Shown here: piece by piece, positions 2,028-42,490 of the stretch
How positions within the stretch are numbered: the stretch's first letter is position 1
Layout of the letters: the number at the start of each line of letters is the position of its first letter
The notes under the pieces: model-generated
The model's database searches: none
Seen by the model: only the letters and a program-made list of their open reading frames with translations
What the model was told of the DNA's origin: nothing
IMG/VR virus record: IMGVR_UViG_3300032240_001377
Location: 1 to 56,601 of that record
Length of the DNA stretch: 56,601 nucleotides
Source: a virus
Lineage: Duplodnaviria > Caudoviricetes
Direction: 5' to 3' (one strand)
Program-made: the position numbers and the translations under genes

Positions 2028-2699
2028 ATGAGCCTGTTGATCCAGCCACTTCCCGCAGACCTTGAGGCCCATGTTTTGGCCCACTACAACCTAATCAACG
2101 AGGGATGGTGCTGGCCGGAGAAGGCGATCAAGCTGGCTGAGATCGTCTGGTCTGTTCGTCCAAACCTCACTGTCGAGGTGGGTGTATTTGGTGGACGGTC
2201 ATTCATACCCATGGCGGCAGTGGTGGCCCATCTTGAGAGCGGATCCACTGCTGCCCTTCCGTCCCATGAGGCCCACGGCATTGATCCTTGGCTGGCCACT
2301 GCGGCCGTTAAGGACAACGAGGGGACGGAGCATGTGCCGTTCTGGTCCAACCAAGGAATGCTGGATGGGGTGTACAACCGGGCCAGTCAGGCGGTGGAGC
2401 GTCTCCAGTCCAGGGTGGTGCGGTTGTTCCGGGAGACCAGCGAGCAGGCTTTCGGACGGTATCCAAAAGGATCCATCGGAGTTCTTTCGCTTGACGGGAA
2501 CCACGCGGAGCCGCAGGCATTCGCGGACGTACAGCGGTGGTGGCCGAAGCTACAGGTGGGTGGTGTGTTCATCATGGACGACACATCCTGGGCCAGCCAG
2601 AAGAAGGCGGTTGACTGGCTGCGGGAGCGGGGAGATGTGGTCTGGCAGTACGATCAGGACGGTAACTCCTGCATCTTCTTCGAGAAGAAGCGGGACTGA
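2028..2699 (+). CDS. Class I SAM methyltransferase (Methyltransf_24-like)
   Basis: VEVGVFGGRS, GIDPW, LDGNH and GGVFIMDD motifs; TTGACA at 1987. Confidence 0.75.
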   Translation: MSLLIQPLPADLEAHVLAHYNLINEGWCWPEKAIKLAEIVWSVRPNLTVEVGVFGGRSFIPMAAVVAHLESGSTAALPSHEAHGIDPWLATAAVKDNEGTEHVPFWSNQGMLDGVYNRASQAVERLQSRVVRLFRETSEQAFGRYPKGSIGVLSLDGNHAEPQAFADVQRWWPKLQVGGVFIMDDTSWASQKKAVDWLRERGDVVWQYDQDGNSCIFFEKKRD

Positions 2700-2705
2700 G
2701 ATTTT

Positions 2706-2786
2706 CTAGGCTGCCGCAGAAGTTCGCTGTGACCGGCGACTATGGCATCCTGAGCGGCCGAAGTGACGAGCGGTCCGACAGCCTGG
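2706..2786 (+). ncRNA. Putative structured RNA
   Basis: Closing stem CTAGGCTG/CAGCCTGG with internal hairpins; intergenic. Confidence 0.35.
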
Positions 2787-2873
2787 TTCTTTTACAATTT
2801 AAGTGTGGCAGAAATGGTTCAATTCAAGTGATCCACCATTGACTTTGGTTTGAACAGTTCGTAGTAAATTCCT

Positions 2874-3401
2874 ATGACAAATGCAAGGCAGGCCGCCATC
2901 AGGTTCGTTGAAAACGGCGGGAAAGTTTCTAGCTGTGGAAATTTTGTATTTGGAATATCTGGAAAGCAACTGAAGAAGATGAACCGTTCTGGGTATTATT
3001 TTGTTAATGTTTATCTTCCTTCTACAAGACACAGGCATCGAGTCCATATCCATAAGATAGTTGCATACATGAAGTATGGCTCTGAATACGTTGACTCAAT
3101 ACTTGTCAGGCACTTGGATGGAAATAAGGAGAACAACTCGTTCAGCAACATAGCCATCGGATCTCACAGTGACAATTCAATGGACAGGGATAGGGACAGC
3201 AGGAGAAAAAGCGCCCAGATAGGCGGTAAGTCGGCAAGCAGGTACTCTGATGGATTTTGGGAATCCATAAGACTTGAGCACCAAGCTGGTAGCAGCTACA
3301 AGTCTCTAAGAAAGAGACATGGGATACCAATATCCACACTCAGCTACCAACTCACGAAAGTTGGAAAGCGTAAAAGATTTATATGCGCCGGAACAGCTTG
3401 A
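2874..3401 (+). CDS. Free-standing HNH homing endonuclease with C-terminal HTH
   Basis: HIHKIVA...VRHLDGNKENNSFSNI...N; AT-rich relative to neighbours; TTGACT at 2839. Confidence 0.85.
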   Translation: MTNARQAAIRFVENGGKVSSCGNFVFGISGKQLKKMNRSGYYFVNVYLPSTRHRHRVHIHKIVAYMKYGSEYVDSILVRHLDGNKENNSFSNIAIGSHSDNSMDRDRDSRRKSAQIGGKSASRYSDGFWESIRLEHQAGSSYKSLRKRHGIPISTLSYQLTKVGKRKRFICAGTA

Positions 3402-3474
3402 AGCTGGTGACACCGGAAGCGGGGCATGTCCTGCTGTACGGGTGCGGTGTTTGAATGCACACCCCGGCGCTCCA
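3385..3474 (+). ncRNA. tRNA-like RNA with extended anticodon arm
   Basis: Acceptor stem GCGCCGG/CCGGCGC + T-CCA; D-like CAGCT/AGCTG; T-like GGTGT/ACACC; no canonical anticodon loop. Confidence 0.5.
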
Positions 3475-3477
3475 ATT

Positions 3478-3581
3478 TCCCACCATCGCATCCGGACTGA
3501 TCTTCGCATTTGGAGGTGGCCGCTCATGGCGGATGACCTTCTAGCCCGTGTGGGCTGGCGTTGCCGGGTGCGGTGGTGGGA
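3478..3581 (+). ncRNA. Structured RNA, multi-branch
   Basis: 18-bp closing stem TCCCACCATCGCATCCGG/CCGGGTGCGGTGGTGGGA (G-U pairs give + strand) enclosing two hairpins. Confidence 0.55.
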
Positions 3582-3586
3582 TTCAA

Positions 3587-3667
3587 TTTTCAGTAATTCA
3601 GGGGCTTGTTCGCCGTGGATGTCGATGTAACCAAATGAACGGTACAAGCAGCGACCTGAGCTGAAAA
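3587..3667 (+). ncRNA. Structured RNA, long interrupted hairpin
   Basis: TTTTCAG/CTGAAAA, TCAGG/CCTGA, GCTTGT/ACAAGC and CCGT/ACGG nested stems. Confidence 0.45.
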
Positions 3668-3668
3668 T

Positions 3669-3781
3669 CGGCAGGAGGCCCGACGTGGCCGGGGAGGTTT
3701 TACGCATTTTACTCCCATCGGCCTGGAACTCGGATTGCCCGCGTGCCATTGCTTTCGATGGCGTACCCTGGACTCCTGCCG
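3669..3781 (+). ncRNA. Structured RNA, three-way junction
   Basis: Closing stem CGGCAGGAG/CTCCTGCCG with two internal hairpins. Confidence 0.45.
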
Positions 3782-3832
3782 CTCCTTTCTTCTCCTTGAC
3801 TGGACGTTCGCACAGGTAAGTATGTGGCCGCC

Positions 3833-4561
3833 ATGGCCGCCAGTCCTGTAAAAGCGGAGGACATTGATCCTCTCAACCCAGCCAACAGCCTCTGTGACGA
3901 GATGCTGAAGGCACTCCGTCTCCGTGACCAGATGCGTGAGTTCCTTGACTGGCTCCTCACTGTGGACGGAAACATCGAGGACAACGTGCTGGAGGGAATC
4001 GCCGACCGGTTGACCCCGGTTGGGTCCATCCAGATGTGGGCGTCCCAGTCCATGCCGTCAACCAAGTGGCTGCTGTGCAACGGGCAAGCCGTCAGCCGTA
4101 CCACCTACGCTTCCCTGTTCCTGCGGATCGGAACGGTGTTCGGGGCAGGCAACGGGTCCACCACCTTCCAGCTCCCCAACTTCACCGACCGTTCACCCAT
4201 CGGTGCTGGTGCCCAGTACACCGCAGGACTTGAAGTTGGAGCTTCCACTGTGGCCCTGACTGAGGCGAACGTGCCACTCAAGGAGCACTACCACGGCACC
4301 GGACGACGGGCTGGTGGCAGTGCCATTGACGACGCCAACAACGACTTTGAAATCATCATGCGGACGTGGACGAAGGATGGGGCCTACCACTACAACTCCC
4401 TTCAAGGTGACGGGTCATTGAGTGGCAACGGCAACTTCAACAACACCGGAAACTCGGCCACCACCGGCCCCATCGCGGACACTGTCGGCACCAACCAAGG
4501 AACAGCCCACACCAACATCCAGCCTTCCTTGGGCATCTACTTCATCATCAAGGCCCTTTGA
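3833..4561 (+). CDS. Tail collar domain protein
   Basis: PVGSIQMWA...WLLCNGQAVSRTTYASLF..IGT.FGAGNGSTTFQLP; C-terminal H.NIQPSL..YFIIK. Confidence 0.85.
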   Translation: MAASPVKAEDIDPLNPANSLCDEMLKALRLRDQMREFLDWLLTVDGNIEDNVLEGIADRLTPVGSIQMWASQSMPSTKWLLCNGQAVSRTTYASLFLRIGTVFGAGNGSTTFQLPNFTDRSPIGAGAQYTAGLEVGASTVALTEANVPLKEHYHGTGRRAGGSAIDDANNDFEIIMRTWTKDGAYHYNSLQGDGSLSGNGNFNNTGNSATTGPIADTVGTNQGTAHTNIQPSLGIYFIIKAL

Positions 4562-8977: not shown

Positions 8978-11900
8978 ATGCCCATCTACACTGTTACCGA
9001 GGATTCCACTGGCCGGTCCATTGACTTCGACGGGGAGTCCCCTCCTGACCAGTCCACGGTGGACCAGGCGTTCCGTAACTACGACGCCTTCAAGATCGCA
9101 CAAGCCGGTCCCCGTGGAAGTCGTGAACGCCGTGTAGCCTCCGCCCAGGTCACCGCCCAGAACTCCCAGGATGCCTTTGCCAAGGAGTCTGGCGGTTCCA
9201 CTTCTTCTCCTTTCACTTCAGCCATAGCCTCCCTTGGTGCTGGTGCGTCTGAAGGTGGATCAAAGATCATCAAGAGCATTGGTCGGTTTGCCTCCTATCT
9301 TCCTGAGTCCATGGGAGCAGGCATCGCGGACAGTCCTGTCCCGGCCGATCAGATGACGGCTGCCGCCATCCTTGAGCGCAGCGACAACAACCCGCTCGTT
9401 CAAGCTGGCCAGTCATTGGAAGATCAAGGAAAGGCGACCTATCCAGTCAACCCGAAGTATCCATGGGCCAACCTTCCTGGATCAGCCATCGCTTCAGGTC
9501 TTTCCGTGGTGGCTGCTGGGCCACTGGCAGTGCCGGCCTATGCCGCCCAGTCGTTCGAGTCTGGACTTCAGGACAGCAGGGACGCAGGGGCCACACCTGA
9601 GCAAGCCATCCAGCAGGGTGCTGTTGAAGCCCTGACTGGTGCGGCCACCGAGGCTTCACTGGGTCTCGTCCCGTTCCTCCATGAGGCAGCCAAGGGGGTC
9701 ACCCGTGGCTTCCTGAAGCCCACCGCAAAGGCTATCGTTGGCGAGGCCATCCAGGAGCCCACTGAAGGCATCCTCAACCGGTTGTCTGCGAAGTACCTCA
9801 CCCAGACCCAGCCCGGGATCGACCCGTTCGACCCGCAGACCATCGCCATGGAAGCAGCGGGTGGTGCCATCGGAGCCGGCGCCATCTCAGGCGGATTCAC
9901 TGGGGCCAACCAGTACCAGCGTGGACAGAGGTTGGCGCAAATCAGGCAGTACCGCGCAGATCCTCTGGCCCAGCTTGCCAACCAGGTCGAGAACGGACCC
10001 ATGGGGTCTTCTCCCCAGTACCAGCTTGAGCAGCAGCTTCGCCAGATGCCCCGTGCGGAAGCTCCTCGCGGCATCCTGAACCTCCAGCCCAACTTCCCCA
10101 TCGCCGGTCCTTCCCAGGACGAGACGGCTTCAGGGATTGGGCAGATCCAGGACCAGTCCGTCCAGACCCCGTTCGACCAGTTACGCAACCGGGCTATCCG
10201 TGCCCAGCGACGGGCTAATGTGGAGCAGGGCCTTACCATGGAACAGCCGTCTCAACCGGTTGAACAGCCTGTCCAGCAGGTGGGCCAGTACCCGGCTGAA
10301 GGGTTTGGTACGGGCGCCATCGTCTCACCAGAGGAACAGGCCCGCCGTGATGCAGTCCGAGCCAGGGTGGAACAGGCCAATGCCCAGCAGGCTGAACAGG
10401 CCCGCGCTGAGGCTCTACGCCAGCAGAACCTTCAGGCCCAAGCCCTGGTCGTGGCAGCCCGTCAAGCCGAAGCGGAACGGCAGGCCGAGGTGCTGGCACG
10501 GTACGAGCGGATGAAGGCTCGCCCCATCTCCACCCCGTTCCTGGATGCCCAGCTTCCACAGCCAGTCCAAGCCCCGCTCGTACAGACCGACCAAGGATTG
10601 ACCGAGGTTGTCCAGCCTGAAGGCCAGACTCCGATGGACGATCTGATAGCCAGGCTGCGTGCTGTCCGTGCCCAGACTCCAGCCACCGCTAGTGGTGGAT
10701 TTACTCCTGGAGGAGCACTCCAAGCTGTAGGTGGAATCACGGCTGACTTTGGAGGGCTGAAGATGTCTGTTATTCCAAGCCCTGATGATCCGTCCATTGG
10801 GTTTGTAACCGGGCTTTCTGGAAGTGGAGTCGCTGGGAAGCTTAACGAGATCAAAGCAGCCCTAAACAATGCAGGGTTCAGGGACATCCAGTATCGTCCA
10901 GACAATGAGGACGGCCGGTCTGCTGCGAGGGTTCGCCTGTTTGAGTCCCTGAAGGCTAAGATAGCATCTCAATCCATCACACCTTCCAATGAAAACCAAG
11001 TCCCTCAAGCAGGTTCGCTACCTAATGTCAAAGGTCAGCCCTCTCAAACCAGCGCAGAAGTCCAAGCTACGCCGGGAACTGCACAGCAAAAAGGTGCGAA
11101 TCCGGAAGTAGCGGAGCCGGTGTATCCGGTTGGTTTCAAGCCGTTCATTGACGAGAATGGAATTGTTGTTGAGCGGTGGAGGCCAAGCCGGTTTGACCTG
11201 AACAACCCTCCTGCTGGAGTGGACGTTGGCATCGCTGACTTCTATTCGCGTGGTGGCGGCAGCTACATGTGGCGGGCTGTTGGTGATGGTGAGTTGGTGA
11301 AGCTGCTTTCCAGATCCAAGACATACGGTGGCGGCGTGTCTGGTCGTGGGAACTACCTTGCCGCATATCCTGAGAAGGCTGCCAAGTGGGATCCTGAACA
11401 GCAGAGCAAGTACCTGATCGAGTTTGCTGGAGCAAAGCCCTCAGGAGAGACATCAAAGAACAAGCTTACACTGGACAATGTAACCCGTATCCTTGTTCGT
11501 GAGAATGGACAGTGGCGTGCATTGACGGATCAGGAGCGTCAGGAGTTGGTATACCAAAAGCCACCCACCCCTTCCGGTGTCCGTCTCCGAAAGGAACCCA
11601 TTTCCCGCAGTAACCCTGCGGCGGCCCAAAGACTCGCTACCTTGGGGCAGGCTGCTCCCTCTTCGGAGGGGGCGGCTTCTTCTGCTTTCGGTGTACGCAG
11701 CTACGGTGGAACCACCATCACCCGTGAACAGGTGGCATCCCATAATCAGGAGGTAGAGAAGCGTGCTGCTGCCGGTGATCCCACAGCTATCCGTGTCCAG
11801 AAGCTGATCGCATCCGTGGACACCGACCAGGGTGTGGGCCGTTTTGCTGGGTATGCCACATTGCCTGATTCCGGGAAGAACAAGGCGCTGGCCTACTACT

Positions 11901-14900
11901 CCACCTCGCTCTATCGCCAGATTGGAAAGTGGCTGGATGGAGGGGAGTTCAAGTTCCAACCGCTGGCAGTCAGCCGGTCGGCCACTAGTTCTTCCGGGAA
12001 GACCCAAGCTGTCCAGATGGAGGCCAAGACGGTGGGCGAGACCCCGCTTGGCGAGGACACGGCCGAGACCAACCTGACCCGTTCATCGGAACCCATAGTC
12101 CAACAGGTCCCACTGGCCAAGCCGGTCAAGCTCCAGGAGGAATCGGTCAAGACCATCCTCGATCTCCAGCGTGAGCTGGGTGTCAGTTCCGAGTCACTGG
12201 TCCGGATCATCCATGCTTTCCAAGACCAGAACACCAGCGACTTGGACGACCAGGAACTGGCTGCACTGGAAGCTGCCACGCCCACACTGAACAAGCTTAG
12301 GAACGTCCAATACTCGGTGGCTGGAGAGGCTGCACCGTTCTACTCCCGACTTGTCCGTACTGTTGAGCAGTCACAGCAGGGCAAGGCCACCGGCGCTCAA
12401 TGGAAGGCGCTCATTAAGAACAGTAAGCTTGGCACGAACAGCGACGAGTTCGCCTTGGTCGGCGTGAACGACCTTGAGGACGGCAAGACCTACACCAAGG
12501 CGGAGGTTCTGGAGTACCTGAATGCCAACCAGGTGGCGGTGAAGGATGTGACGTTGGGTGAAGGGCTGTCTGGCGATGCCCAAAAGCGTTTTGAAGAAAT
12601 CCAACTGCGCTATCGGATTCTCACGGACGAGATGGCTGGCAACCGTTTCCAGCGTGAAAACAGGGAAATAACCTTGGAGGAGTCTCGGAGAAATGCCAGC
12701 AGGCTAAGTGCTGAAAGGAGCAATCTGGATGACGAAATGAACGCCATTAACAGGCAGCGTTCTGAAACCCACTTCTCCTCCTACCAACTGCCCGGTGGTA
12801 AGGAAGGATCGTACAGGGAAGTGTTGCTGACGGTTCCTGGTTCAAATACGAGTGGTAAATCTGGAGCTGAACTTGAGGATTGGAAGCGACAGGCAGCAAT
12901 CAAGTATGGGCCAAACTGGAATCGCCAAGACCTGACTTGGTTTGAGCGCCAAAAGCTTGATGAGTTCACTATTCCAACAAGTTGGGTGGACGGACACAGC
13001 CAATACTCCTCCATAACCAATCCCATCGTCCGTCTCCGCTTCAACGAGCGCACGACCGCTGACGGGAAGCGGATGCTTTTCCTTGAGGAAGTCCAAGCCC
13101 CACAAAAGGCCCAGTTCGAGAAGATGCCTGCCCTGTTCCAGAAGAACTGGCGGGAGATCGCGTTCAAATGGGCACTCCGTCATGCGGCGGATAACGGGTT
13201 CGACAGCGTGGGCTGGACCACTGGGGAACAGCAGGCGGAGCGGTATGACTTGAGCCAACAGGTGAAACGGATTGAATGGAACTCAGTTCGTGAACGCCCT
13301 GGTCAGGTTCTTCTGACTGTGTTCAACACCAACGATTCTCGGGTGATGAACGAGTGGATGCCTGTCGAGAAGGTGGAGTCCGTTGTCGGAAAGGAAATAG
13401 CCGCCAAGATTCTCAACGAACCAAACGGCACACTTCAAGGAGACGGCCTGAAGATCGGCGGAGAAGGCTTGAAGAAGCTGTACGACTCCGACTTCCGCAA
13501 CGTCGTGAACGGCCTGCCGGCTGTGAAGAAGAGCGGGCAGAAGGTGGGGATGGCGGAAATCAACAAGCCGGGTGGAATCGGTCAGTGGCGCTACGAAGGA
13601 CCGTTGTTGCTGCCTGAAGAAGTCCGCGCCATCGCACGCAAACAAGACGTGCGTGTGGAGCAGCAGTTGAACGACATCGCCAATAGCGTTCTAAATGGAA
13701 CGGATCTTCACGATGCCGTGGAGCAGCTAGGCTCCGCCTCGGCAGCACGGGCGCTTGGTGGAACTTTGGTGCCGGTGGACAAGACGCTTCCGATCCACGC
13801 CATCGCCATCACCCCAGCCATCCGCGACTCCGTGATGGGCGGGCAGGCTTTGTTCTCTGTTGGAAGTTCCCTGTCCACCCTAATCAGGGAACCGCTTGGA
13901 CTGGAGCGTACCCAGGAAGCGGTGAACCAGTGGAAGGCTGTCCATGGAGGACAGGACATAGCCATCCGTGTGGTGGACGATCCCAACCTGAAGACCCCTG
14001 ACGGCCGGACTGTGGCTGCACAGGTCGAGATGGTCCCGGGTGGTGTGCCCATCATCACCATCAACGCCTCCCAAGTGGGATCGGCTGCGGAAGTCCATGA
14101 GAAGATTTGGCATGAGCTGTTCCACCCGGTCTGGAACGATCCGTCTGTCCAGCAGGCTTGGGGTGAGGTGATGCAGTCTGTGGACCAGCGGATGGTTGAG
14201 GGCCAGTTGGCCCGTGGCTACTCGCCGGAGGAGGCAGCCATGGAAGCAGCCATCGACTTGGCTGCCATGAAGGCTGGTGACAAGAAGGTCCGGTCGGCCT
14301 GGAAGCGGTTCCTGGACAAGGTGTGGAATGCCATGAAGAAGGCGTTTGGGTTCGAGGTCCGGCCGAACAACTTCGAGGCCCTGATGATCTCTGCCCTGCG
14401 CCAGGCCAGCCGGCCGTGGAATGGCCAGCAGCAGAACCAGTACAACCAGGATGTGGCCGCACTGGACAAGGCCCACTTGGAAGCTGTGGCCCGTGGTGAC
14501 ATGGCTACGGCACAGAGGCTGGTGGACGAGGCGGCGAAGAGGGCCGGGTACTCCACTGCAAAGCCTGGCAATAATGCCTCCAAGCGGAACAGCCTTCGGG
14601 TAAAGCTGTCCCGTCAGGCATTGACGGATCTCGCGCTATCACAGGCCAACTGGAGGGATTGGTACAAGGAACATCAGGATACGCTAAATGCCTTCTTTGG
14701 AAGCGACGCTGGTTTGTTCCAGAAGATCCTGGCCATCACATCTCAGGCGGCTTCAGTGAAGGCGAATGTCGGCCTGGCCTTGAAGGCTTTCGCGCAGTTC
14801 AAGCAGGGGCTGGCTTTTGATGGATACCTTCCTGCCGTAATCGGAAATCTCAATGCACTTCGTGCCGAGACACAGATTCAGGGAAGGAAGATCGGAGCCT

Positions 14901-17900
14901 ACACTTCAGCCAACGAGGGTCAGACCGATGCAGTTGTCGTGGATCGGCATATTGCACGGATGCTTTTCGGGGTTGATACCCCCTCTGCCGCACAGTTTGC
15001 AAAGGCGGCCCGCGTGCTTACCGAGATAGCCAATGAAATCGGGTGGGAACCGCGTCAGGTCCAAGCTGCTCTTTGGGCGGCATCAATCGTAAAGTCGGGA
15101 AAACAACCTCAATCTTATGGACAATACCTCAAGCAGCTCAATTCAAACGGAACCCTCGCGGAACGAATTGGACATGTTGTTGATAGAAGCTCAGAGATCT
15201 ATGGAATTGGCGGAAGCGGGGTCGCTGATTCTGGAGGAATCTCAACAGAGACTGAAGGATCCAAGTCGGCCGACCCAGTAACCTACGACGACGCCGGCAA
15301 GGTGGTGCTCCTGTCCCAGCGGTTCAACCCGCAGAACAAGGACATCCGCTACTCGGTGGCCAACAACCTGTACGTCACCAGCCCGACCAAGTTCAACACC
15401 ATCGCTGCCAATGGACAGACCGAGGCTGTGGCAGCCCAGGGTCAGGTATCCTCGGCCATCGTTCCGGAATCTACTCTCAAGGTGGTCTCCGATCTGGAGG
15501 CCAAGCAGGACCGTAACCCAGTCGAGAACGCCACCCTCAAGGCCCTGAAGGGTGTGAGCAACATCGCCCAAGTGGCTGCTGCGGCGGACCAGCTTCGTGC
15601 CAATGTGGATGGGATGCCCTCCTACACGACCATCAACCAGCTACCGGAGGAGTTCAAGAGTGTGGGCGCCCAGTCGGTGATGGCCACCCACTTCTACCTG
15701 AACCAGTTCCGCAAATCCATCCGCACCCAGATGGAGCGGGCCTCCAACGATGTAGCCACGTTGTCCCAGGAACTGGCTGACCTGACGCCGGACCGGTTGC
15801 TGGCCACGCTCACCTCCCATGAGGCGGACGAGATGCTGGTCAACCTCCAGAAGTTCCTGGATGTGGAGCAGGGCAAGCTGGGCACGTCCACTGCATCCCG
15901 TACCCGCGAGGAACTGGACAAGGCTTCCGCTGCCATCGTTGGGATGCGGCGAAAGATCGAGGCAATCTCCGCAGGGTTGCAGGCCATGGCCAAGGAGATG
16001 CCCCTGGCCGACTTCGACAGCCCGGCCGCCGTGAAGGCTTGGCTGGAGTCGCGCATGGCCGACAAGAACCTTCCCCTGTTGATGGGGCAGGACGTGTTCC
16101 AGACCATCCGTGTGGCCCTCAACAAGGACTCCACCCTGCACAACCGCCTCTCCATGGTGCGGGGACTCATGGCCGACACCCAGGCAGCCAAGAAGGAGCT
16201 GGAAGGGTTGGCCAAGCAGCTTGGATCCGGCAAGCCCGCTGTGGTCTTGAAGCGGATCATCGAGATGAAGGGTGATGCCCGGGCTGTCCTTGATAACGTT
16301 CGCCGGTTGGACCTTCGTCTTGACCGGGCCATGAACAAGATCGAGGGGTTGACCGAAGCTGGAAACGTGATGGACCAGATGCAGGTCGATCCGTCCTACC
16401 AGGAACGGGTCAAGTCCGCTTTCGACTACGCCGGGTTCAAGTATTCCGGGGTGATCCGGTTTGACGACCAACCCTCCGGAAACCAGACGCTTCGTGCCCC
16501 GGACGGGACGGAGTACCGTATCAACTTCTCTCCCGATTTTGCTGTCGAACGGCAGAACCTGGACACCCTTGGGAAGTGGATGGAGAAGACGTTGGATGCA
16601 CTTACCAATCCGGAGAGCCCACAGTACATCACCGACCCGGCCACCCGTACGTCCTACGCCAACACCATGGCGTTCGTCAGCCGGTTCTTGATGGACAAGC
16701 GGGGCTTGGTCGAGTCGGCCTGGGCAGATGCCGGGTCGGTCCAGACCATGAACGCCATCCTAGGTGCGCCTGAGAAGCTGGTGCAGTTGAAGTTCCTCCT
16801 CGGGGACCATCTGAACACGCGGTTCAACCTGTACCGCAATCTCGCCGGTCGGGCTGGGCTGGATCTGGTCAACCGTTCCCGTGCCATCGACCGGTTCATG
16901 GCCGAGGTGAAGAACATCCTCGATGCCACCCGTACCCAGAATGCTGCTGCACGGCGGAAGGCCATCCTGTCCCACGGTCTCAACCCGGATGACCCGGCCG
17001 ACTACGAGCTGTGGAATAGTACGGTCAACTCCTGGATCCTGAGCCAGAACCAGAACCCTGGGTCCCGTCCTGTGCAGGAAGGGGTGCATGTGGGGATGGG
17101 GCTTGAGGTCACCAAGGAGGACATCGCCTTCGCCGGTCTCCAGCACAAGTTCTCCAGGGCCATCTCGGAAGCCTACTCCGGGATCATTGGAGAGGACATG
17201 GTGCAGGACCCGAATGCCCCGGGCTACAACCCGGAGGAGACCCTGTTTGGACAGGTGTTCTCGCGCAAGGCCATGCAGTTTGGGTTTGCCACCGGCCGCA
17301 AGTTCTCCCATGCCGGCCGGGAGTACACCAAGCTCTGGATGGATGCCCGGTCCAAGGATCTCGCCGAGTACAAGGCTAGCGTGGCTGCTGCCCCAGAAGG
17401 GACTGAAGTCCCCATGGTGTACACCGAGCGGAAGAAGGTGGCCGAGGAATCCATGGAGGGCCATGTGTACGCCCATATCCGTGAGAGCAACCCGGAGTAC
17501 ACGTCCACCGCAGACAAGGGCCTCAGGGAAGCCTACCGGGATGTGGCTAATGCCATCCGTAGCGGCGCAGACTTCCGTTCCATCACCGACCTGTCAATGG
17601 CTCTCGCCGAGGCGATGACCACGGACGAGAAAGATGTGGGTGCCTTTGAAGCGGAGCAGTCCTTGATGAAGGCGCTGGACCGGGATGTGGTGAACTACAA
17701 CATGGCCGCCGAGGTGGTGGGTTCAACCTCTCCCAACGAGACTGTAACCGACCTTCCTCCTGCCCTCCGGTCCATCAAGACGGCCAAGGGTGCGCTGGTT
17801 AAGGCGCGTGGCAAGATGGTGGCCCCGTCCTTCTTCTACGACTACTCGATTGGCACCGACCTGGACCGGTCCTCGATGGTGCAGATGGGCAAGCAGGCCC

Positions 17901-20128
17901 TGATGATCTCCGAGGTAAACGCCGCACGTAACATGGTGGCTGCCATGCGGGACAAGCTGGATGGGCACGAGCGCCAGATCGACAAGAACGCCAAGGTGAT
18001 AGGGCGGAACGGTAAGCCTGTCGGTCGAGGCAGGGCCATCGCTGAACTGGATGCGGAACTGAAGAAGAAGTTCAGGGAAGGCGCCGAGTTCATCACCTAC
18101 AAAATGCTGAAGAAGCACATCGCCGCACTGGAGACAGCCATTGGTGACCGCGAGAAGTCCATGGTGCGGGAGCGGGTTACCGAGGAGGAATCCTTCAAGG
18201 TGTCCATGGTGAATGCCTTGGGTGGTGGTGTCATCTCGTCCATCCTGTCCGCCCCGGCCCCCATGATTAACAACATGCTTGCCGTGGTGACCGATCCTGT
18301 CCGTATCGGAATGATGGTGGGAGGGCCGTTGACCGCCATCAACTGGGCTGGACGAGGGGCCATGAGTGCCCTCAAGTACAGCTTCCAGAAGCTGGTGAAC
18401 GGTGTGGTCGATGCCACGGGTGTTGTCCTGAGCAGGGATGCCAAGGCCAAGCTTGCTGAGATGGCCTCGTTCATCACCGGGTCGATGCTGGATACCCGGT
18501 CCAATCTTGAACGGTCTGGAACCATCGACGCCCCGGAGTCGTTCACGTCAATCTGGTCCAGGTACAAGAACAACCCCGCTGCGTTTGGCAGGGCCACAAG
18601 GGCGCGTGAGACCGAGTTCTCAAAGAACTTCTCGCGGGTAATGACTTCACCCTTGTTCGCCTACGGGTTCCTGCCCGCCATGGGTGAGTGGCTGAAGCAG
18701 AAGGCCCCAGGGTCCGGTGACCGTATGGTCAACTACGTCAACGCGAAGATGGGGACACTTATGGCCAACCGTTACGCGCCATACCTGTGGAACTGGGTGA
18801 ACGAGCAGGACGGCACCACTGTTGAGGAGAAGATCCGGTCCGCCATGGAAGCTGGGGCTCTCCGTGGATCGGACCTTGGTGTCTCCGACGAGGCCATGGC
18901 CAACATCCGTGACATCCTTGGACCCGCTGGATCGCTGGAGAAGCTGGCCTTGGACTACTACCGTGCCAACCCGAATGGTGCGAAGGGTCCGCTCCTGAAC
19001 CAGTCCCAGCGGGAAGGGGTTGAGTTCGAGATCGCTGCCATCACCAACAAGGAGACCGACTCCACCCGTCCTGACATCACCAAGGGCGGGGCTGGGATGG
19101 AGAACACCTTCCGACGGATGCTGTATCTCTTTGCCCGTTACATCCTCCAGCACATGGGGGTGAACAAGCGGGTGTTCGGGATCAAGGGCGGGGATGGTGG
19201 TGGGCTGGGCAAGGACCTGAAGAAGGGGCTGGGCTATCTGTTCGTGCTGGCCATGACCCTGTTGGCCGGTTCTCTGGCCCTGCCCATCAAGCAGCTTGCC
19301 CGTACATTGCTCCAGCGGGAACCGCTTACATCGCCCACCATCGTACAGGCGTTCGATTCTCCTGAGATGGCCGGGAAGTACCTGGCCAGTGCGGCCATGG
19401 GCGTGCTGCCGGTGGGTGCGGCTGCGGTCGGGATGGCTTTGACCGGGAATGGGGTGAATGGACCCATCACAGCAAACTTCTTCGACAGCAACCCGATTGC
19501 TGGTGCTGCCAACAACCTGATCCAGGCGGCCACCTCGGCCTACCAGACCAAGGACATCACCTACCCTGCACTGGACCTGGCCCGGAAGACGTTCTGGTTC
19601 AGCCAGCCCCTCATCAACGCTGCTATGCCGGGAGACACCATGGCCCGTGAGGCGAATAGGGCTGTCCGTACTGCGGCCACCGGGCTTGAAATCCGTCCTC
19701 AAAGTGGTGGTGGTATGGGACGGTCCACGCCGGTTACACCGTTTGTCAGGGATGCAGTGGCGGCCACCTACGAGGGCAACGCTGAAGCCTTTGCTGCCGC
19801 CAAGCAGAAGGCCATCGACTACTACGTGAGCCAGGGCAAGACGGCCAAGGAGGCTGAGGCCCGGTTCAACTCGTCGGTCAGTGGGCGTGACCCGTTCAGG
19901 AGCGTGTTCGGAAGGACTCCCACCGCAGACGAGACGGCCACCGTCCAGCGCCGGCTTACTTCCGGTCAAGCGGAGACGCTTTCCAAGGCCAACTTCTCCC
20001 GTCCAGCCAGGCTCAGGAAGACCAAGGGAAGTGTCAGCCTGCGGAAGAGGAGGAAGTCGAAGGGGTACACCGGGCTTCGGAAGCCTTCTTCACGGCGCGT
20101 GCGATTGCGGCGCGTTGCCTATTCCTGA
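8978..20128 (+). CDS. Giant (3716 aa) polyvalent internal virion / ejection protein
   Basis: Cys-free; HELFH zincin motif; VVVDRHIAR glycosylase-like motif; YSV/FSV module ends; C-terminal hydrophobic helices and basic tail. Confidence 0.8.
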   Translation: MPIYTVTEDSTGRSIDFDGESPPDQSTVDQAFRNYDAFKIAQAGPRGSRERRVASAQVTAQNSQDAFAKESGGSTSSPFTSAIASLGAGASEGGSKIIKSIGRFASYLPESMGAGIADSPVPADQMTAAAILERSDNNPLVQAGQSLEDQGKATYPVNPKYPWANLPGSAIASGLSVVAAGPLAVPAYAAQSFESGLQDSRDAGATPEQAIQQGAVEALTGAATEASLGLVPFLHEAAKGVTRGFLKPTAKAIVGEAIQEPTEGILNRLSAKYLTQTQPGIDPFDPQTIAMEAAGGAIGAGAISGGFTGANQYQRGQRLAQIRQYRADPLAQLANQVENGPMGSSPQYQLEQQLRQMPRAEAPRGILNLQPNFPIAGPSQDETASGIGQIQDQSVQTPFDQLRNRAIRAQRRANVEQGLTMEQPSQPVEQPVQQVGQYPAEGFGTGAIVSPEEQARRDAVRARVEQANAQQAEQARAEALRQQNLQAQALVVAARQAEAERQAEVLARYERMKARPISTPFLDAQLPQPVQAPLVQTDQGLTEVVQPEGQTPMDDLIARLRAVRAQTPATASGGFTPGGALQAVGGITADFGGLKMSVIPSPDDPSIGFVTGLSGSGVAGKLNEIKAALNNAGFRDIQYRPDNEDGRSAARVRLFESLKAKIASQSITPSNENQVPQAGSLPNVKGQPSQTSAEVQATPGTAQQKGANPEVAEPVYPVGFKPFIDENGIVVERWRPSRFDLNNPPAGVDVGIADFYSRGGGSYMWRAVGDGELVKLLSRSKTYGGGVSGRGNYLAAYPEKAAKWDPEQQSKYLIEFAGAKPSGETSKNKLTLDNVTRILVRENGQWRALTDQERQELVYQKPPTPSGVRLRKEPISRSNPAAAQRLATLGQAAPSSEGAASSAFGVRSYGGTTITREQVASHNQEVEKRAAAGDPTAIRVQKLIASVDTDQGVGRFAGYATLPDSGKNKALAYYSTSLYRQIGKWLDGGEFKFQPLAVSRSATSSSGKTQAVQMEAKTVGETPLGEDTAETNLTRSSEPIVQQVPLAKPVKLQEESVKTILDLQRELGVSSESLVRIIHAFQDQNTSDLDDQELAALEAATPTLNKLRNVQYSVAGEAAPFYSRLVRTVEQSQQGKATGAQWKALIKNSKLGTNSDEFALVGVNDLEDGKTYTKAEVLEYLNANQVAVKDVTLGEGLSGDAQKRFEEIQLRYRILTDEMAGNRFQRENREITLEESRRNASRLSAERSNLDDEMNAINRQRSETHFSSYQLPGGKEGSYREVLLTVPGSNTSGKSGAELEDWKRQAAIKYGPNWNRQDLTWFERQKLDEFTIPTSWVDGHSQYSSITNPIVRLRFNERTTADGKRMLFLEEVQAPQKAQFEKMPALFQKNWREIAFKWALRHAADNGFDSVGWTTGEQQAERYDLSQQVKRIEWNSVRERPGQVLLTVFNTNDSRVMNEWMPVEKVESVVGKEIAAKILNEPNGTLQGDGLKIGGEGLKKLYDSDFRNVVNGLPAVKKSGQKVGMAEINKPGGIGQWRYEGPLLLPEEVRAIARKQDVRVEQQLNDIANSVLNGTDLHDAVEQLGSASAARALGGTLVPVDKTLPIHAIAITPAIRDSVMGGQALFSVGSSLSTLIREPLGLERTQEAVNQWKAVHGGQDIAIRVVDDPNLKTPDGRTVAAQVEMVPGGVPIITINASQVGSAAEVHEKIWHELFHPVWNDPSVQQAWGEVMQSVDQRMVEGQLARGYSPEEAAMEAAIDLAAMKAGDKKVRSAWKRFLDKVWNAMKKAFGFEVRPNNFEALMISALRQASRPWNGQQQNQYNQDVAALDKAHLEAVARGDMATAQRLVDEAAKRAGYSTAKPGNNASKRNSLRVKLSRQALTDLALSQANWRDWYKEHQDTLNAFFGSDAGLFQKILAITSQAASVKANVGLALKAFAQFKQGLAFDGYLPAVIGNLNALRAETQIQGRKIGAYTSANEGQTDAVVVDRHIARMLFGVDTPSAAQFAKAARVLTEIANEIGWEPRQVQAALWAASIVKSGKQPQSYGQYLKQLNSNGTLAERIGHVVDRSSEIYGIGGSGVADSGGISTETEGSKSADPVTYDDAGKVVLLSQRFNPQNKDIRYSVANNLYVTSPTKFNTIAANGQTEAVAAQGQVSSAIVPESTLKVVSDLEAKQDRNPVENATLKALKGVSNIAQVAAAADQLRANVDGMPSYTTINQLPEEFKSVGAQSVMATHFYLNQFRKSIRTQMERASNDVATLSQELADLTPDRLLATLTSHEADEMLVNLQKFLDVEQGKLGTSTASRTREELDKASAAIVGMRRKIEAISAGLQAMAKEMPLADFDSPAAVKAWLESRMADKNLPLLMGQDVFQTIRVALNKDSTLHNRLSMVRGLMADTQAAKKELEGLAKQLGSGKPAVVLKRIIEMKGDARAVLDNVRRLDLRLDRAMNKIEGLTEAGNVMDQMQVDPSYQERVKSAFDYAGFKYSGVIRFDDQPSGNQTLRAPDGTEYRINFSPDFAVERQNLDTLGKWMEKTLDALTNPESPQYITDPATRTSYANTMAFVSRFLMDKRGLVESAWADAGSVQTMNAILGAPEKLVQLKFLLGDHLNTRFNLYRNLAGRAGLDLVNRSRAIDRFMAEVKNILDATRTQNAAARRKAILSHGLNPDDPADYELWNSTVNSWILSQNQNPGSRPVQEGVHVGMGLEVTKEDIAFAGLQHKFSRAISEAYSGIIGEDMVQDPNAPGYNPEETLFGQVFSRKAMQFGFATGRKFSHAGREYTKLWMDARSKDLAEYKASVAAAPEGTEVPMVYTERKKVAEESMEGHVYAHIRESNPEYTSTADKGLREAYRDVANAIRSGADFRSITDLSMALAEAMTTDEKDVGAFEAEQSLMKALDRDVVNYNMAAEVVGSTSPNETVTDLPPALRSIKTAKGALVKARGKMVAPSFFYDYSIGTDLDRSSMVQMGKQALMISEVNAARNMVAAMRDKLDGHERQIDKNAKVIGRNGKPVGRGRAIAELDAELKKKFREGAEFITYKMLKKHIAALETAIGDREKSMVRERVTEEESFKVSMVNALGGGVISSILSAPAPMINNMLAVVTDPVRIGMMVGGPLTAINWAGRGAMSALKYSFQKLVNGVVDATGVVLSRDAKAKLAEMASFITGSMLDTRSNLERSGTIDAPESFTSIWSRYKNNPAAFGRATRARETEFSKNFSRVMTSPLFAYGFLPAMGEWLKQKAPGSGDRMVNYVNAKMGTLMANRYAPYLWNWVNEQDGTTVEEKIRSAMEAGALRGSDLGVSDEAMANIRDILGPAGSLEKLALDYYRANPNGAKGPLLNQSQREGVEFEIAAITNKETDSTRPDITKGGAGMENTFRRMLYLFARYILQHMGVNKRVFGIKGGDGGGLGKDLKKGLGYLFVLAMTLLAGSLALPIKQLARTLLQREPLTSPTIVQAFDSPEMAGKYLASAAMGVLPVGAAAVGMALTGNGVNGPITANFFDSNPIAGAANNLIQAATSAYQTKDITYPALDLARKTFWFSQPLINAAMPGDTMAREANRAVRTAATGLEIRPQSGGGMGRSTPVTPFVRDAVAATYEGNAEAFAAAKQKAIDYYVSQGKTAKEAEARFNSSVSGRDPFRSVFGRTPTADETATVQRRLTSGQAETLSKANFSRPARLRKTKGSVSLRKRRKSKGYTGLRKPSSRRVRLRRVAYS
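10989..11111 (+). CDS. Overprinted 40-aa basic peptide (+1 frame inside giant gene)
   Basis: MKTKSLKQVRYLMSKVSPLKPAQKSKLRRELHSKKVRIRK; GC3-biased codons in this frame; G-poor leader. Confidence 0.55.
   Translation: MKTKSLKQVRYLMSKVSPLKPAQKSKLRRELHSKKVRIRK
15117..15281 (+). CDS. Overprinted 54-aa acidic helical peptide (+1 frame inside giant gene)
   Basis: MDNTSSSSIQTEPSRNELDMLLIEAQRSMELAEAGSLILEESQQRLKDPSRPTQ; A/C-rich leader. Confidence 0.45.
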   Translation: MDNTSSSSIQTEPSRNELDMLLIEAQRSMELAEAGSLILEESQQRLKDPSRPTQ

Positions 20129-28128: not shown

Positions 28129-28296
28129 TCATTCCATAACCGCATACACCACCATCAACGGCCCGCACGCCACCGCCCCGATCACATCGCCTATCCTGTC
28201 CCAGAACAGGAAGTGGCAGACTACCATGGGGATGATCCATACAGCCAACCACAGGATGGCCAGGATGTAGAGGACTGCTCGGATGGTGGATTTCAT
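28129..28296 (-). CDS. Small membrane protein
   Basis: Two hydrophobic segments, 55 aa. Confidence 0.5.
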   Translation of the reverse strand: MKSTIRAVLYILAILWLAVWIIPMVVCHFLFWDRIGDVIGAVACGPLMVVYAVME

Positions 28297-29252
28297 TTTA
28301 CGTTCCTCTCGGAATACTTGGTCAGTGCATCCCCCATGGACTCCCGGATCAGCTCCGGATCCCGGTCCACGTAGGACATGAACATCTTCGGGTCCTTGTG
28401 CCCGACAATCTGGCAGCCCACCAATGGATTGATGCCACCATTGGCCAACCGGGTAATCAGTCCTCTCCGGAATGAATGGGGGGTGAACCCGCGAGCCCGC
28501 AGGCCCGACTTGTTCAGGGCCGCATTCATGCGCTGGATGAATCGCCGGTTGCTCACATCGAGCCAAGCATGGGGGTGGACGTACTCCACGTTGGGCACGT
28601 TGGGCCAGAGGTAGCGGTCCCTGTCCCGCTTGGTGGCGCGGTCACGGATCATCCCAGCCAGCTGACAACAGGGATCCACCGGGATGATGCATGGCTTGTC
28701 GTAGTTTCGGATCTTCTGGCGGACCTTCTGGATGATCCACCGCTCCATGTCCACCTCCTCCCACAACAGCCCCGCCGCGTCCACCAGGGCCAGACCGGTG
28801 TTGAACATGAGGCAGTACAGCCAGTGGGAGTTGGGATCCTTGTCGTGGTCCAGCAGGATCCGGTACTCCCGTTCCATGACGGGAGGATGGAAGATGGGCT
28901 TCTTGGCAGGAGGCGGACGGATGCCATTGGCTGGGCTGTTCCGGCAGTACCCAGCCATGACCAGCCAAGCGCAGAACTGCTTCACCCCAGCCCATTCCAC
29001 GCTGCCACCAGCCCCTTCCCGGGTACGGATCAGGTGGTCCCGGTAGGCCAGCAGGTTGGGCCGGCTCAATGGACGCCCAGCCAGGAACAGTTCAAGGTTT
29101 TTGACGCAGTATCCAATCCTCCCAAGGGACGATTCGGTCAGTTCCGTCCGCCTCTCGGCCAGGAACTCCTTGGCCAAGTCGAACAGGGACGGCATCCGGA
29201 CCACCTCCCGCAATGGGGGCAATGGTTCCACCACCAGTTCCAGTTCGTTCAT
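28293..29252 (-). CDS. Tyrosine recombinase / integrase (Arg-I replaced by Ala)
   Basis: TGLA.D, RQK, HSFRR, VGH and Y motifs; SAM-like N-terminal domain. Confidence 0.85.
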   Translation of the reverse strand: MNELELVVEPLPPLREVVRMPSLFDLAKEFLAERRTELTESSLGRIGYCVKNLELFLAGRPLSRPNLLAYRDHLIRTREGAGGSVEWAGVKQFCAWLVMAGYCRNSPANGIRPPPAKKPIFHPPVMEREYRILLDHDKDPNSHWLYCLMFNTGLALVDAAGLLWEEVDMERWIIQKVRQKIRNYDKPCIIPVDPCCQLAGMIRDRATKRDRDRYLWPNVPNVEYVHPHAWLDVSNRRFIQRMNAALNKSGLRARGFTPHSFRRGLITRLANGGINPLVGCQIVGHKDPKMFMSYVDRDPELIRESMGDALTKYSERNVK

Positions 29253-41772: not shown

Positions 41773-42490
41773 ATGAAAGTAATTCAACTATCAAAAAAAA
41801 GACTGTGATAGATGGGTTCTGGCCAAGCACTATTCAAGACGGGCTCCTATTTACTGGGCTGGGTTTGGGTTGGTGATTGATGGGAATGTTGAAGGGGTTT
41901 GTGTGTATGGACAACCTTCTCCACCAATCCAAAAACACGCATTCAAGGATCGTGATTTCAAGCTGCTTGAACTTTCAAGGCTTGTGGTACAGACAACTCA
42001 GAAGAATGCGGCATCATTCTTGGTTGGTAACAGTCTCCAAATGCTTGATGCGCCGTGTGCGATAGTATCTTATGCAGACAGTGAGCAAGGGCATTCAGGA
42101 ATTGTCTATCAGGCGACCAACTGGATTTACACTGGAGCCACAAAATCACACGACAGCGCCTACATTGTGGACGGTAAAAGGGTTCATCCCATGACTCTGC
42201 GCGATATGGGAATCACCGACCCTGTAAGGTGGGCAAAGGAAAACGGAATAGAAAAAGTACCTCCAATGCCAAAGCACAGGTATTTCCAATTTGTAGGCAA
42301 CAGGCAGCAGATACGGAAAATGAAATGCAAGCTGTCGTACCCTATTGTAAGTGCATACCCTAAAAGCCCTAAATCCAGGTACGATGACGGACCTAAAATA
42401 GTCCACACTGTAAAAGAATATGATTCTTCTGAAGATTGGAACTTGCCACTTTACGGAATAAAAACCCTAGTCCAACAATCACTCCTGTAA
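41773..42490 (+). pseudogene. Mom-like (GNAT) DNA modification gene, frameshifted at an A8 tract
   Basis: A7 would give MKVIQLSKKDCDRWVLAKHYS...GV..YG.P...ELSRL...SYAD..QGH.G..YQATNW.YTG. Confidence 0.75.

Follow-up and report, generated by a model that had tools for sequence, protein, structure and literature searches.

We analyzed a stretch of DNA of 56,601 nt (56.6 kb; hereafter the window) that is the whole of the IMG/VR virus record IMGVR_UViG_3300032240_001377, an uncultivated aquatic or lake phage, among whose open reading frames (ORFs) a Pfam scan (48 ORFs covered; about 23 small ORFs of the 66 listed lay outside it) found terminase, integrase, DnaB, ThyX, and tail genes. Our subject is the 1.1 kb gap between a Methyltransf_24 gene, which ends at 2699 (stop codon 2697-2699), and a phage tail-collar gene listed from 3824, with a likely true ATG at 3833-3835; both lie on the + strand. 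The single convincing ORF inside the gap is an HNH_3 homing-endonuclease-like ORF of 175 aa (2874-3401, + strand; Pfam HNH_3 34 bits, E 2.3e-8), and an earlier note on this DNA, made from the letters alone, had described around it a tandem array of mutually unrelated structured small RNAs. We find five such elements, all on the + strand: element A (2703-2795), a multi-branch fold just 3' of the methyltransferase stop codon; unit 1 (3385-3474), cloverleaf-shaped, with a 7-bp acceptor-like stem, a U discriminator, and an encoded CCA; unit 2 (3479-3583), a 17-bp closing stem with two hairpins; unit 3 (3585-3668), with an A/U-rich closing stem, inner stems, and a 22-nt loop; and unit 4, or d4 (3669-3781), which comprises an outer helix P0, a core hairpin P1-P2-P3 (core 3675-3738), a second variable hairpin, and a pyrimidine tract. 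We consider it on balance probable that this island is a hypervariable set of stable-RNA genes that lies downstream of a sugar-methyltransferase operon, in its 3' untranslated space, and ahead of the tail-fibre genes.

Folds, strand, and coding potential

The earlier note gave each of the five elements its own terminal stem, and folding agrees. On the + strand, the segment 3380-3830 has a minimum free energy (MFE) of -190.7 kcal/mol (z -2.95, equalled by none of 100 shuffles), and the MFE structure consists of four abutting domains with a closing stem each (3385-3470, 3478-3580, 3585-3668, and 3669-3779); on the - strand the same segment has a z of -1.70, which 6 of 100 shuffles equal. Folded singly, all five elements reach a lower energy on the + than on the - strand (the third, -61.7 vs -43.7); 0 of 200 shuffles were as good as unit 2 (3478-3580; z -5.64) or d4 (z -2.97), 1 of 200 as good as unit 3 (z -2.66), and 4 of 200 as good as unit 1 (z -2.30). 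The element limits stand broadly as they were first drawn, with the amendments that the first element is 2703-2795, that the second has a 3' UCCA ending at 3474, and that the HNH ORF enters the second by 17 nt. The last 20 nt of that ORF, stop codon included, fall within a conserved spacer and unit 1's first hairpin. The short A/T spacers reported between the last four elements are there as well: CCA-AUUU between units 1 and 2, AUUCAAUUUU between units 2 and 3, and a direct A-U junction between units 3 and 4.

None of the elements is a canonical transfer RNA (tRNA), as had been noted. ARAGORN finds 0 genes in the whole window and, at an 80% threshold, two implausible calls only; Rfam gives 0 matches to any family at gathering score in the whole window, and the model of transfer-messenger RNA (tmRNA; RF00023) has no match there. 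At E<=10, the interval 2500-4000 yields just two meaningless matches to long non-coding RNA families, both within the HNH ORF, and no tRNA, tmRNA, or Intron_gpI. The canonical D arm, 7-nt anticodon loop, and T loop, as recognized by tRNA detectors, are absent from the window units, and the 3' features of a canonical tRNA (7-bp acceptor stem, discriminator, and CCA) occur together in unit 1 only; element A and units 2-4 have closing stems and no CCA. The units are also unrelated to one another, partial repeats of at most 21 nt being all that was detected. Positions 3439-3459 of unit 1 and 3565-3585 of unit 2 have 21 nt in common (81% identical), and 3513-3522 of unit 2 and 3682-3691 of the d4 core have 10 nt in common (90% identical); such stretches could be traces of recombination between units, or chance.

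Two of the functions offered earlier for these RNAs find little in the letters to recommend them. A decoy for anticodon nucleases would be expected to display an anticodon-like hairpin loop of 7 nt, and none is present in the MFE structure of any window unit. C4/CI-like antisense RNAs directed at genes of this phage should have extended complementarity in its genome, but outside 2650-3850 no unit has a perfect complement longer than 10-12 nt, which is about chance for 56.6 kb by a rough estimate rather than a computed control. Two known classes of structured RNA were also considered and rejected: a bacterial Y RNA (YrlA) acting with Ro, for which there is neither an Rfam match nor a TROVE domain among the 48 ORFs scanned, and a retron msr/msd, for which the same 48 ORFs hold no reverse-transcriptase domain.

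The earlier note had allowed that a conserved protein ORF might explain the region instead. Pfam at E<=1 has no match for the antisense ORF at 3306-3749 or for four other small ORFs, and this 147-aa antisense ORF has no homologue in 5.8 billion protein clusters (80-258 aa band searched). On these searches, no protein appears to account for the RNA region.

Relatives and strain variants of the island

Searches with downstream proteins brought up three related virus records and eight metagenome contigs, and the interval from methyltransferase to tail collar is readable in seven genomes: the window, L005, L166, L168, L171, L004, and L167. No cultured-phage relative of the region was found in INPHARED. 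The fullest of the related intervals is that of L005, 1.47 kb without credible ORFs, which holds a homologue of element A, a full tmRNA downstream of it (102 bits, E 2e-40, model positions 1-374), a 26.6-bit match to the tRNA model, and five units that end in an acceptor stem and N-CCA or N-NCA. A canonical T arm is seen in three of the five, and one is the homologue of unit 1, which is separated from the element A homologue by the tmRNA and three units; further folds and then d4 follow the CCA-ended units. L166 has element A, a tmRNA (90 bits), one T-arm unit, and d4; L168 and L171 have different units, one with a CCA end before AUUUU, plus d4; and L004 and L167 have d4 alone. Junctions in these relatives run N-CCA (or a variant), AUUU(U), next unit, a spacer type as in the window, and all are on the + strand. 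ARAGORN at its default misses even the relatives' tmRNAs, and at relaxed thresholds (80-90%) it draws units with poor D and anticodon arms. From their predicted structures, the relatives' units are tRNA-like at their ends and are not tRNAs, and the island is, on the evidence of this comparison, homologous to a phage row of tmRNA and tRNA-like genes whose content varies by genome. The resemblance to a phage tRNA array that was remarked in the window thus extends to the sister phages, whose interval holds a tmRNA and units with acceptor stem, T arm, and N-CCA separated by AUUU(U).

Unit 1 is the window's clearest link to this row. Its closing stem, GCGCCGG paired with CCGGCGC, is followed by U and then CCA. 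In its homologue in L005 (4640-4727) the acceptor strands are identical at 7 of 7 positions and the 3' strand with UCCA at 11 of 11, yet just 29 of 72 interior positions (40%) agree, and independent MFE folds arrive at the same four-way topology: the 7-bp stem, a 5-bp hairpin 2 bases on, a long central arm, and a 5-6-bp arm that abuts the 3' strand. The same acceptor stem, U73, and CCA recur in tRNA-Cys(GCA) genes called by ARAGORN in the unrelated phages L285 and L179. Canonical D, anticodon, and T loops are absent from unit 1, and neither it nor its L005 homologue has a 7-nt anticodon loop or a conserved GCA, so that these comparisons show, at the level of predicted structure, a tRNA-Cys-type acceptor end around a non-tRNA body. 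A pattern scan of IMG/VR gave, among at least 101 distinct matches, besides the window and L005 only unrelated GC-rich sequence or true tRNA-Cys genes.

Element A keeps company with the tmRNA. Its homologues (L005 3812-3926 and L166 ~2516-2608) were found by BLAST of the region at 72.7% identity over 117 nt and 69% over 140 nt, respectively, and in each case a conserved tmRNA leader, GUUCUUU(U)ACA, follows. The element is present in all three family members that have a tmRNA or a tmRNA remnant and in none of the four without one (3/3 and 0/4). In a consensus computed with RNAalifold from only three sequences, 25 pairs form and 7 of them have changes on both sides. A 15-mer of element A occurs at 56 loci, among which the L005 record alone is related.

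Several observations concern the tmRNAs themselves. Among other phages, the L005 island has a counterpart only in the T-arm stretch of their tmRNAs; one example is the annotated tmRNA of Streptomyces phages in GenBank, which has this 3' stretch in common with the L005 tmRNA. A different, lower-GC phage group (L175-L177) has tmRNAs of 89-93 bits, that of L175 at 1943-2402 with a small folded unit and a terminator downstream, and the pseudoknot-1 stretch of this group is letter-identical to that of L005 over 24 nt. The textbook tmRNA tag has about 10 residues. In the two closest relatives, L005 (4008-4115) and L166 (2701-2808), the tag encoded by the tmRNA has 35 residues; its protein sequence is conserved between them, including an internal block and an end in ...VAA, which suggests that a long phage tmRNA tag may do more than mark proteins for degradation. 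A unit that starts GAGCGCG or GAGUG and continues with UGGC stands after or near the phage tmRNA in three genomes (L005 4426-4519, L166 2944-3072, and L175 2410-2500, with a T arm in L005 and L166), and also appears in the loose end of a strain contig (X3, below) just before unit 1; it may be a conserved companion of phage tmRNAs.

Closer relatives come from DNA contigs assembled from four runs in four studies of aquatic or lake metagenomes, which were compared with positions 2300-4300 of the window. A 40-kb contig (X2) matches 2300-2800, 3382-3590, and 3669-4260 with 43 differing letters over ~1,300 aligned bases (~96-97% identity); it bridges 2800 to 3382 with 364 other letters, and so is without the HNH block, and joins 3590 to 3669, skipping 78 nt, and so is without unit 3. 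Contig sequence from X3 spans 3382-3478 with 0 differences and joins 3478 to 3584, leaving out exactly unit 2, and also 3478 to 3669, leaving out units 2 and 3 together. Units 2 and 3 are exact presence/absence cassettes among near-identical strains, with breakpoints at 3478, 3584, 3590, and 3669 (the unit 3 indel being 3591-3668). These borders are the unit borders that had been drawn from the fold alone, and the proposal of discrete modules gains accordingly from strains that lack either of these units or the pair. Both are orphans: BLAST across the analysis loci and a search of the three related virus records (L168 and L172 were not covered) gave no homologue of either, and in a scan of IMG/VR for the two-arm pattern of unit 2 all 13 of 13 hits were chance. 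Covariation among homologues, which had been suggested as a check, is accordingly available for part of the row, namely for the d4 core (see below) and, in three sequences, for element A (7 of 25 pairs), and not for units 2 and 3.

The strain differences also speak to the strand. In unit 2, the three listed differences are all structure-neutral: C>U changes at 3481 and 3541 give U-G pairs, and 3527 lies in a loop (X2). In unit 4, five substitutions and two indels are listed, of which three substitutions and both indels fall in the P3 loop; one C>U change gives a G-U pair that is found at that position in 16 of 19 relatives, and one A>G change turns U-A into U-G. The wobble pairs that result are mismatches on the - strand, and because G-U pairing is kept on the + strand only, these changes point to RNA of the + strand. 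The assignment to the + strand, made earlier from G-U pairs, is supported by the lower fold energies, the + strand position of the tmRNA and CCA units in sister phages, and these strain changes.

A rival view is that the units are decaying pseudo-tRNA relics of a tRNA/tmRNA array, still rich in stems, without function, and lost piecemeal. In its favor, units 2 and 3 are orphans that near-identical strains dispense with, the tmRNA of the window has already been destroyed, unit 1 keeps no more of a tRNA-Cys-like gene than the acceptor end, and ARAGORN sees the relatives' units only at its 80-90% thresholds and with poor arms. Yet all listed differences in units 2 and 4 spare the + strand pairing, unit 1 and its L005 homologue retain identical ends and the same four-way fold at 40% interior identity, a z of -5.64 for unit 2 is unexpected of drifting sequence, and gain and loss at exact unit borders resemble cassette exchange rather than erosion. 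We regard decay as unlikely for the row, possible as it is for some units. The same precise indels, together with the tyrosine integrase of the phage, could instead hint that the hairpins are sites at the DNA level, whether integron-attC-like, attP-like, or tRNA-gene 3' fragments left by integration. The integrase, however, lies 25 kb off, the units are neither mutual repeats nor copies of a tRNA 3' end, the relatives' tmRNA is full-length (model 1-374) and no fragment, and the changes that keep G-U pairs favor a + strand RNA; we give this idea very little credence.

The HNH_3 ORF is absent from the X2 contig, L005, and L166, and it lies within a block of GC 0.38-0.42 flanked by ~0.58 on both sides. 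The low-GC cassette (2820-3381, + strand) occupies the slot that in sister genomes holds the tmRNA, with or without a tRNA-like unit, which agrees with the earlier description of an array interrupted by an HNH gene. The X2 and X3 contigs diverge from the window at 2800, and the X3 loose end resembles the tmRNA 5' ends of L166 and L175; the X5 contig matches 2736-2819 with 2 differences, and its continuation resembles the L005 tmRNA in the 5' region. Before 3382, the X3 loose end is similar to a T arm and acceptor strand in L166, those of the unit next after the tmRNA. Because the loose ends of X3 and X5 read like tmRNA 5' ends, the window appears to hold ~19 nt of the tmRNA 5' end (2801-2819, + strand), a stretch that aligns with the tmRNA 5' ends of L005, L166, and L175. 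Taken with the alignments, this shows the HNH cassette as a replacement of the tmRNA, of which all but these ~19 nt of the 5' end would have been lost from the window. The relatives of the HNH_3 protein are distant only (30% identity to HNH endonucleases of two Rhodobacter phages), and no close relatives of the gene were found in IMG/VR.

Structured RNA flanking a homing-endonuclease ORF is a common phage arrangement, and structured RNA on both sides of this ORF could mean that 2706-3781 is a group I intron with the HNH ORF in a loop and the flanking folds as halves of the ribozyme. No intron model matches even at E<=10, however, and no host gene is split: the methyltransferase ends at its own stop codon as in the relatives, and the tail-collar gene starts after d4. 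The flanks of the HNH-less strain are separated by 364 letters instead of being joined, and in L005 the counterparts of element A and unit 1 have a tmRNA and three units interposed. With no Intron_gpI match, no split gene, and HNH-less flanks that are not contiguous, we exclude the intron, whose probability we put close to nil.

The d4 motif and the downstream flank

The last unit has a history of its own. It is present in seven of seven family members, two of them without any other unit, and the data show d4 to be a structured motif distinct from the other units and more widespread, standing at the end of the island in each relative. Its outer helix P0 is supported in five of the seven sequences, each time with a different sequence (at most 8 of 300 shuffles as good), and unsupported in L004 and L167; on its 3' side, the window has P0 followed by a mixed C/U tract, and L004 and L167 have the second hairpin followed by U5. 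A pattern search with the core led to the same motif in a second group of ~45-kb phage contigs, and a scan of a genome collection with the core pattern gave 24 loci, of which three are true instances (>=52 bits), two in metagenome-assembled genomes (MAGs) of Verrucomicrobia and one in a Hyphomicrobiaceae MAG; the other 21 reach at most 30.5 bits where the covariance model of the core (R1) matched at all. Model R1 scores 67.9 bits in the window, and over 93 sources it sets 18 true hits (>=52 bits) apart from 13 that match by pattern only (at most 30.5 bits); a second run across the analysis loci gave 24 matches of >=52 bits, 19 of them distinct.

In the core alignment, 88.4% of cells pair, compared with 78.5% in shuffles and at most 66% in slid controls. 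Changes on both sides of a pair are seen in 26 cells where 8.2 would be expected, a count that none of 500 shuffles reached, and a separate calculation gave similar values; only P1 and distal P3 are free to contribute to this signal. The P1 of the second phage group has a linker that is shorter by one base, and the alignment scores it as unpaired. Core sites include L010 1993-2057, L069 1993-2064, L304 1493-1557, L309 1493-1568, and L310 1489-1552, among others, and the loci in Verrucomicrobia and Hyphomicrobiaceae MAGs are prophage-like, with unrelated gene contexts; the occurrence in Verrucomicrobia is a weak hint at the host of the window phage. The core is conserved in phages of unrelated hosts, and its neighbor genes vary from a methyltransferase to a recombination module, Mu-like head genes, and an HU-like gene. 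There are no Rfam matches at the d4 loci, and the motif has 0 occurrences in the six supplementary files searched of a viral structured-RNA catalogue (PMC10690425), files 1, 2, and 4 of which were outside the search. Given these sequence patterns, d4 may be a candidate RNA family.

The position of d4 brings up another rival, in which the folds act only in cis on a long messenger RNA, as stabilizers of its 3' untranslated region, terminators, or insulators, and are never released. Twelve loci were examined, and in 8 of the 11 with an upstream ORF the d4 model starts -5 to +11 nt from a same-strand stop codon; in L004 and L167, the relatives without an array, d4 comes straight after the stop codon (3-10 nt past it) and its second hairpin is followed by U5, and the window has a pyrimidine tract and then a likely promoter on the 3' side of P0. 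All of this suits d4, but not the others: the bona fide tmRNA and CCA-ended units of the relatives must be released to work, unit 1 encodes UCCA, and four different large folds exceed what a terminator needs. A purely cis role, possible for some units, seems to us a doubtful account of the island. The putative tail-collar promoter is drawn from TTGACT at 3796-3801 and TAAGTAT at 3817-3823 (+ strand); by eye, a CTTGACT and ATG context is kept in five of seven relatives, and a consensus promoter scan called nothing at 3796-3835.

Farther off, the window has at 8978-20128, downstream of the tail genes, one ORF of 3716 aa whose sole, weak match is to DUF7178 (26.5 bits, just under the cut-off). 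It also encodes a tyrosine integrase (28293-29252; 43 bits) and a Mom-family protein (41870-42490; 84 bits), and because of these two proteins the phage is probably temperate and may modify its own DNA.

A possible mechanism and its known counterparts

In the reading we favor, that of hypervariable stable-RNA genes, the island would be read from the upstream operon as one precursor, and its acceptor-like closing stems and A/U spacers would let the host tRNA machinery cut that precursor into discrete stable RNAs, with RNase P acting at the 5' ends and RNase E or Z and exonucleases at the 3' ends, as in phage tRNA/tmRNA arrays. For tRNA precursors, it is established that acceptor stems and A/U trailers direct RNase P and the 3'-end nucleases. 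The HNH enzyme would target the conserved tmRNA 5' region of HNH-less alleles and spread by gene conversion, and d4 would be a 3'-end or terminator-proximal element ahead of the promoter-like TTGACT...TAAGTAT stretch. The most speculative step is that the variable bodies might decoy, or compete for, host factors whose targets are tRNA ends or tmRNA. If they did, the rapid turnover of units would be explained; the high turnover suggests an arms-race function. Phage tRNAs are reported to counter tRNA-cleaving defenses, and phage tRNA arrays are now read as countermeasures to such immunity (PMC10264068, PMC11555353, PMC11464382, PMC12851939, PMC13096335). Given these reports, and the phage homing endonuclease and phage tmRNA discussed below, a decoy or competitor role would be plausible.

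A bolder version would make the island a fast-evolving library of RNAs scaffolded by tRNA-type ends, in which closing stems that imitate acceptor ends would recruit the host's tRNA-processing enzymes, any body could be excised and stabilized, and cassettes would be swapped with the help of the homing endonuclease to decoy or jam immunity or quality control directed at tRNA ends or tmRNA; the d4 core would then be a new autonomous element, a self-cleaving or factor-binding 3'-end module instead of a simple terminator. We offer this as a long shot.

Several points weigh against stable-RNA genes. We infer the transcription, processing sites, and stability of the island RNAs from anatomy, and scans called neither a promoter upstream of the island nor a canonical terminator at d4 in the window (3669-3800). 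Element A folded singly is weak on its own (z -1.39, a value matched by 23 of 200 shuffles). For units 2 and 3, which have no homologues, the folds rest on thermodynamics and a few strain differences. The CCA end occurs on unit 1 only; units 2-4, without it, start with C, which is not the preferred +1 base of RNase P. The indels at 3479-3583 (105 nt) and 3591-3668 (78 nt) are multiples of three inside the 147-aa antisense ORF and would suit a coding region too; we take this as coincidence, with a strain-specific small protein as the alternative. The invariant 11+12 nt of the d4 core are invariant partly by construction, the same letters having been in the search pattern used outside the family, and the identity of the 364-letter insert of X2 as a tmRNA is suggested by its size and by the loose ends of X3 and X5.

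How does the island compare with known systems? Phage arrays of tRNA and tmRNA genes, of the type seen in mycobacteriophages and Streptomyces phages, are alike in their tandem same-strand small RNA genes, their very short A/U spacers, and, in the relatives, a real tmRNA; they are unlike in that the window units are not tRNA or tmRNA and have mutually unrelated folds, and in that the island lies in a 3' untranslated region before tail genes. Two further RNAs, RNAC and RNAD of phage T4, reportedly lie within the T4 tRNA gene cluster and are matured like tRNAs. The passage of PMC9697503 that treats them describes non-tRNA phage RNAs whose function is still unknown (PMC9697503). We liken the putative RNAs of the window units to them by description, as non-tRNA phage RNAs. 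The homing endonuclease SegB of T-even tRNA regions belongs to the GIY-YIG family. According to the part of PMC13096335 that concerns it, SegB is often associated with tRNA genes, and the homing endonuclease remodels such loci under defense pressure (PMC13096335). On that description, SegB is like the window gene in being a free-standing homing-endonuclease gene inside a phage small-RNA array; the window enzyme differs as an HNH_3 protein that displaced a tmRNA rather than sitting between tRNAs.

Charging of a tRNA-like end with alanine needs a G3-U70 pair. A tmRNA of mycobacteriophage DS6A without a coding sequence, as summarized in PMC11915505, inhibits the host tmRNA (PMC11915505), and such tRNA-like ends without the normal body provide, so far as that summary goes, a model for the acceptor-ended units. 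Unit 1 of the window, in contrast, has G3-C70, and units 2-4 are without a tRNA-like domain. Neither Rfam nor the searched supplements of PMC10690425 hold the units or d4, bar the relatives' tmRNA and the weak tRNA-model match, which is no proof of their being unpublished.

The locus therefore has the genomic logic of a tRNA array (tandem units, a homing endonuclease, and gain and loss at the strain level) but units that are not tRNAs, and it points to a wider repertoire of stable RNAs in phages, in which tRNA-type ends may serve only to allow processing or to confer stability. Three new RNA families gain comparative support here: element A, the cloverleaf of unit 1, and d4. The strains also give an instance from nature of a phage tmRNA ousted by a homing endonuclease, and they form a natural isogenic series in which units 2 and 3 and the HNH cassette are variously present or absent. 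In kind, the island is already known, from phage stable-RNA arrays with a homing endonuclease and from T4 RNAC and RNAD as the pertinent passage of PMC9697503 presents them; new, by comparison, are a row made up entirely of non-tRNA units, strain cassettes precise to the unit, an HNH gene that displaces a tmRNA, and the d4 motif.

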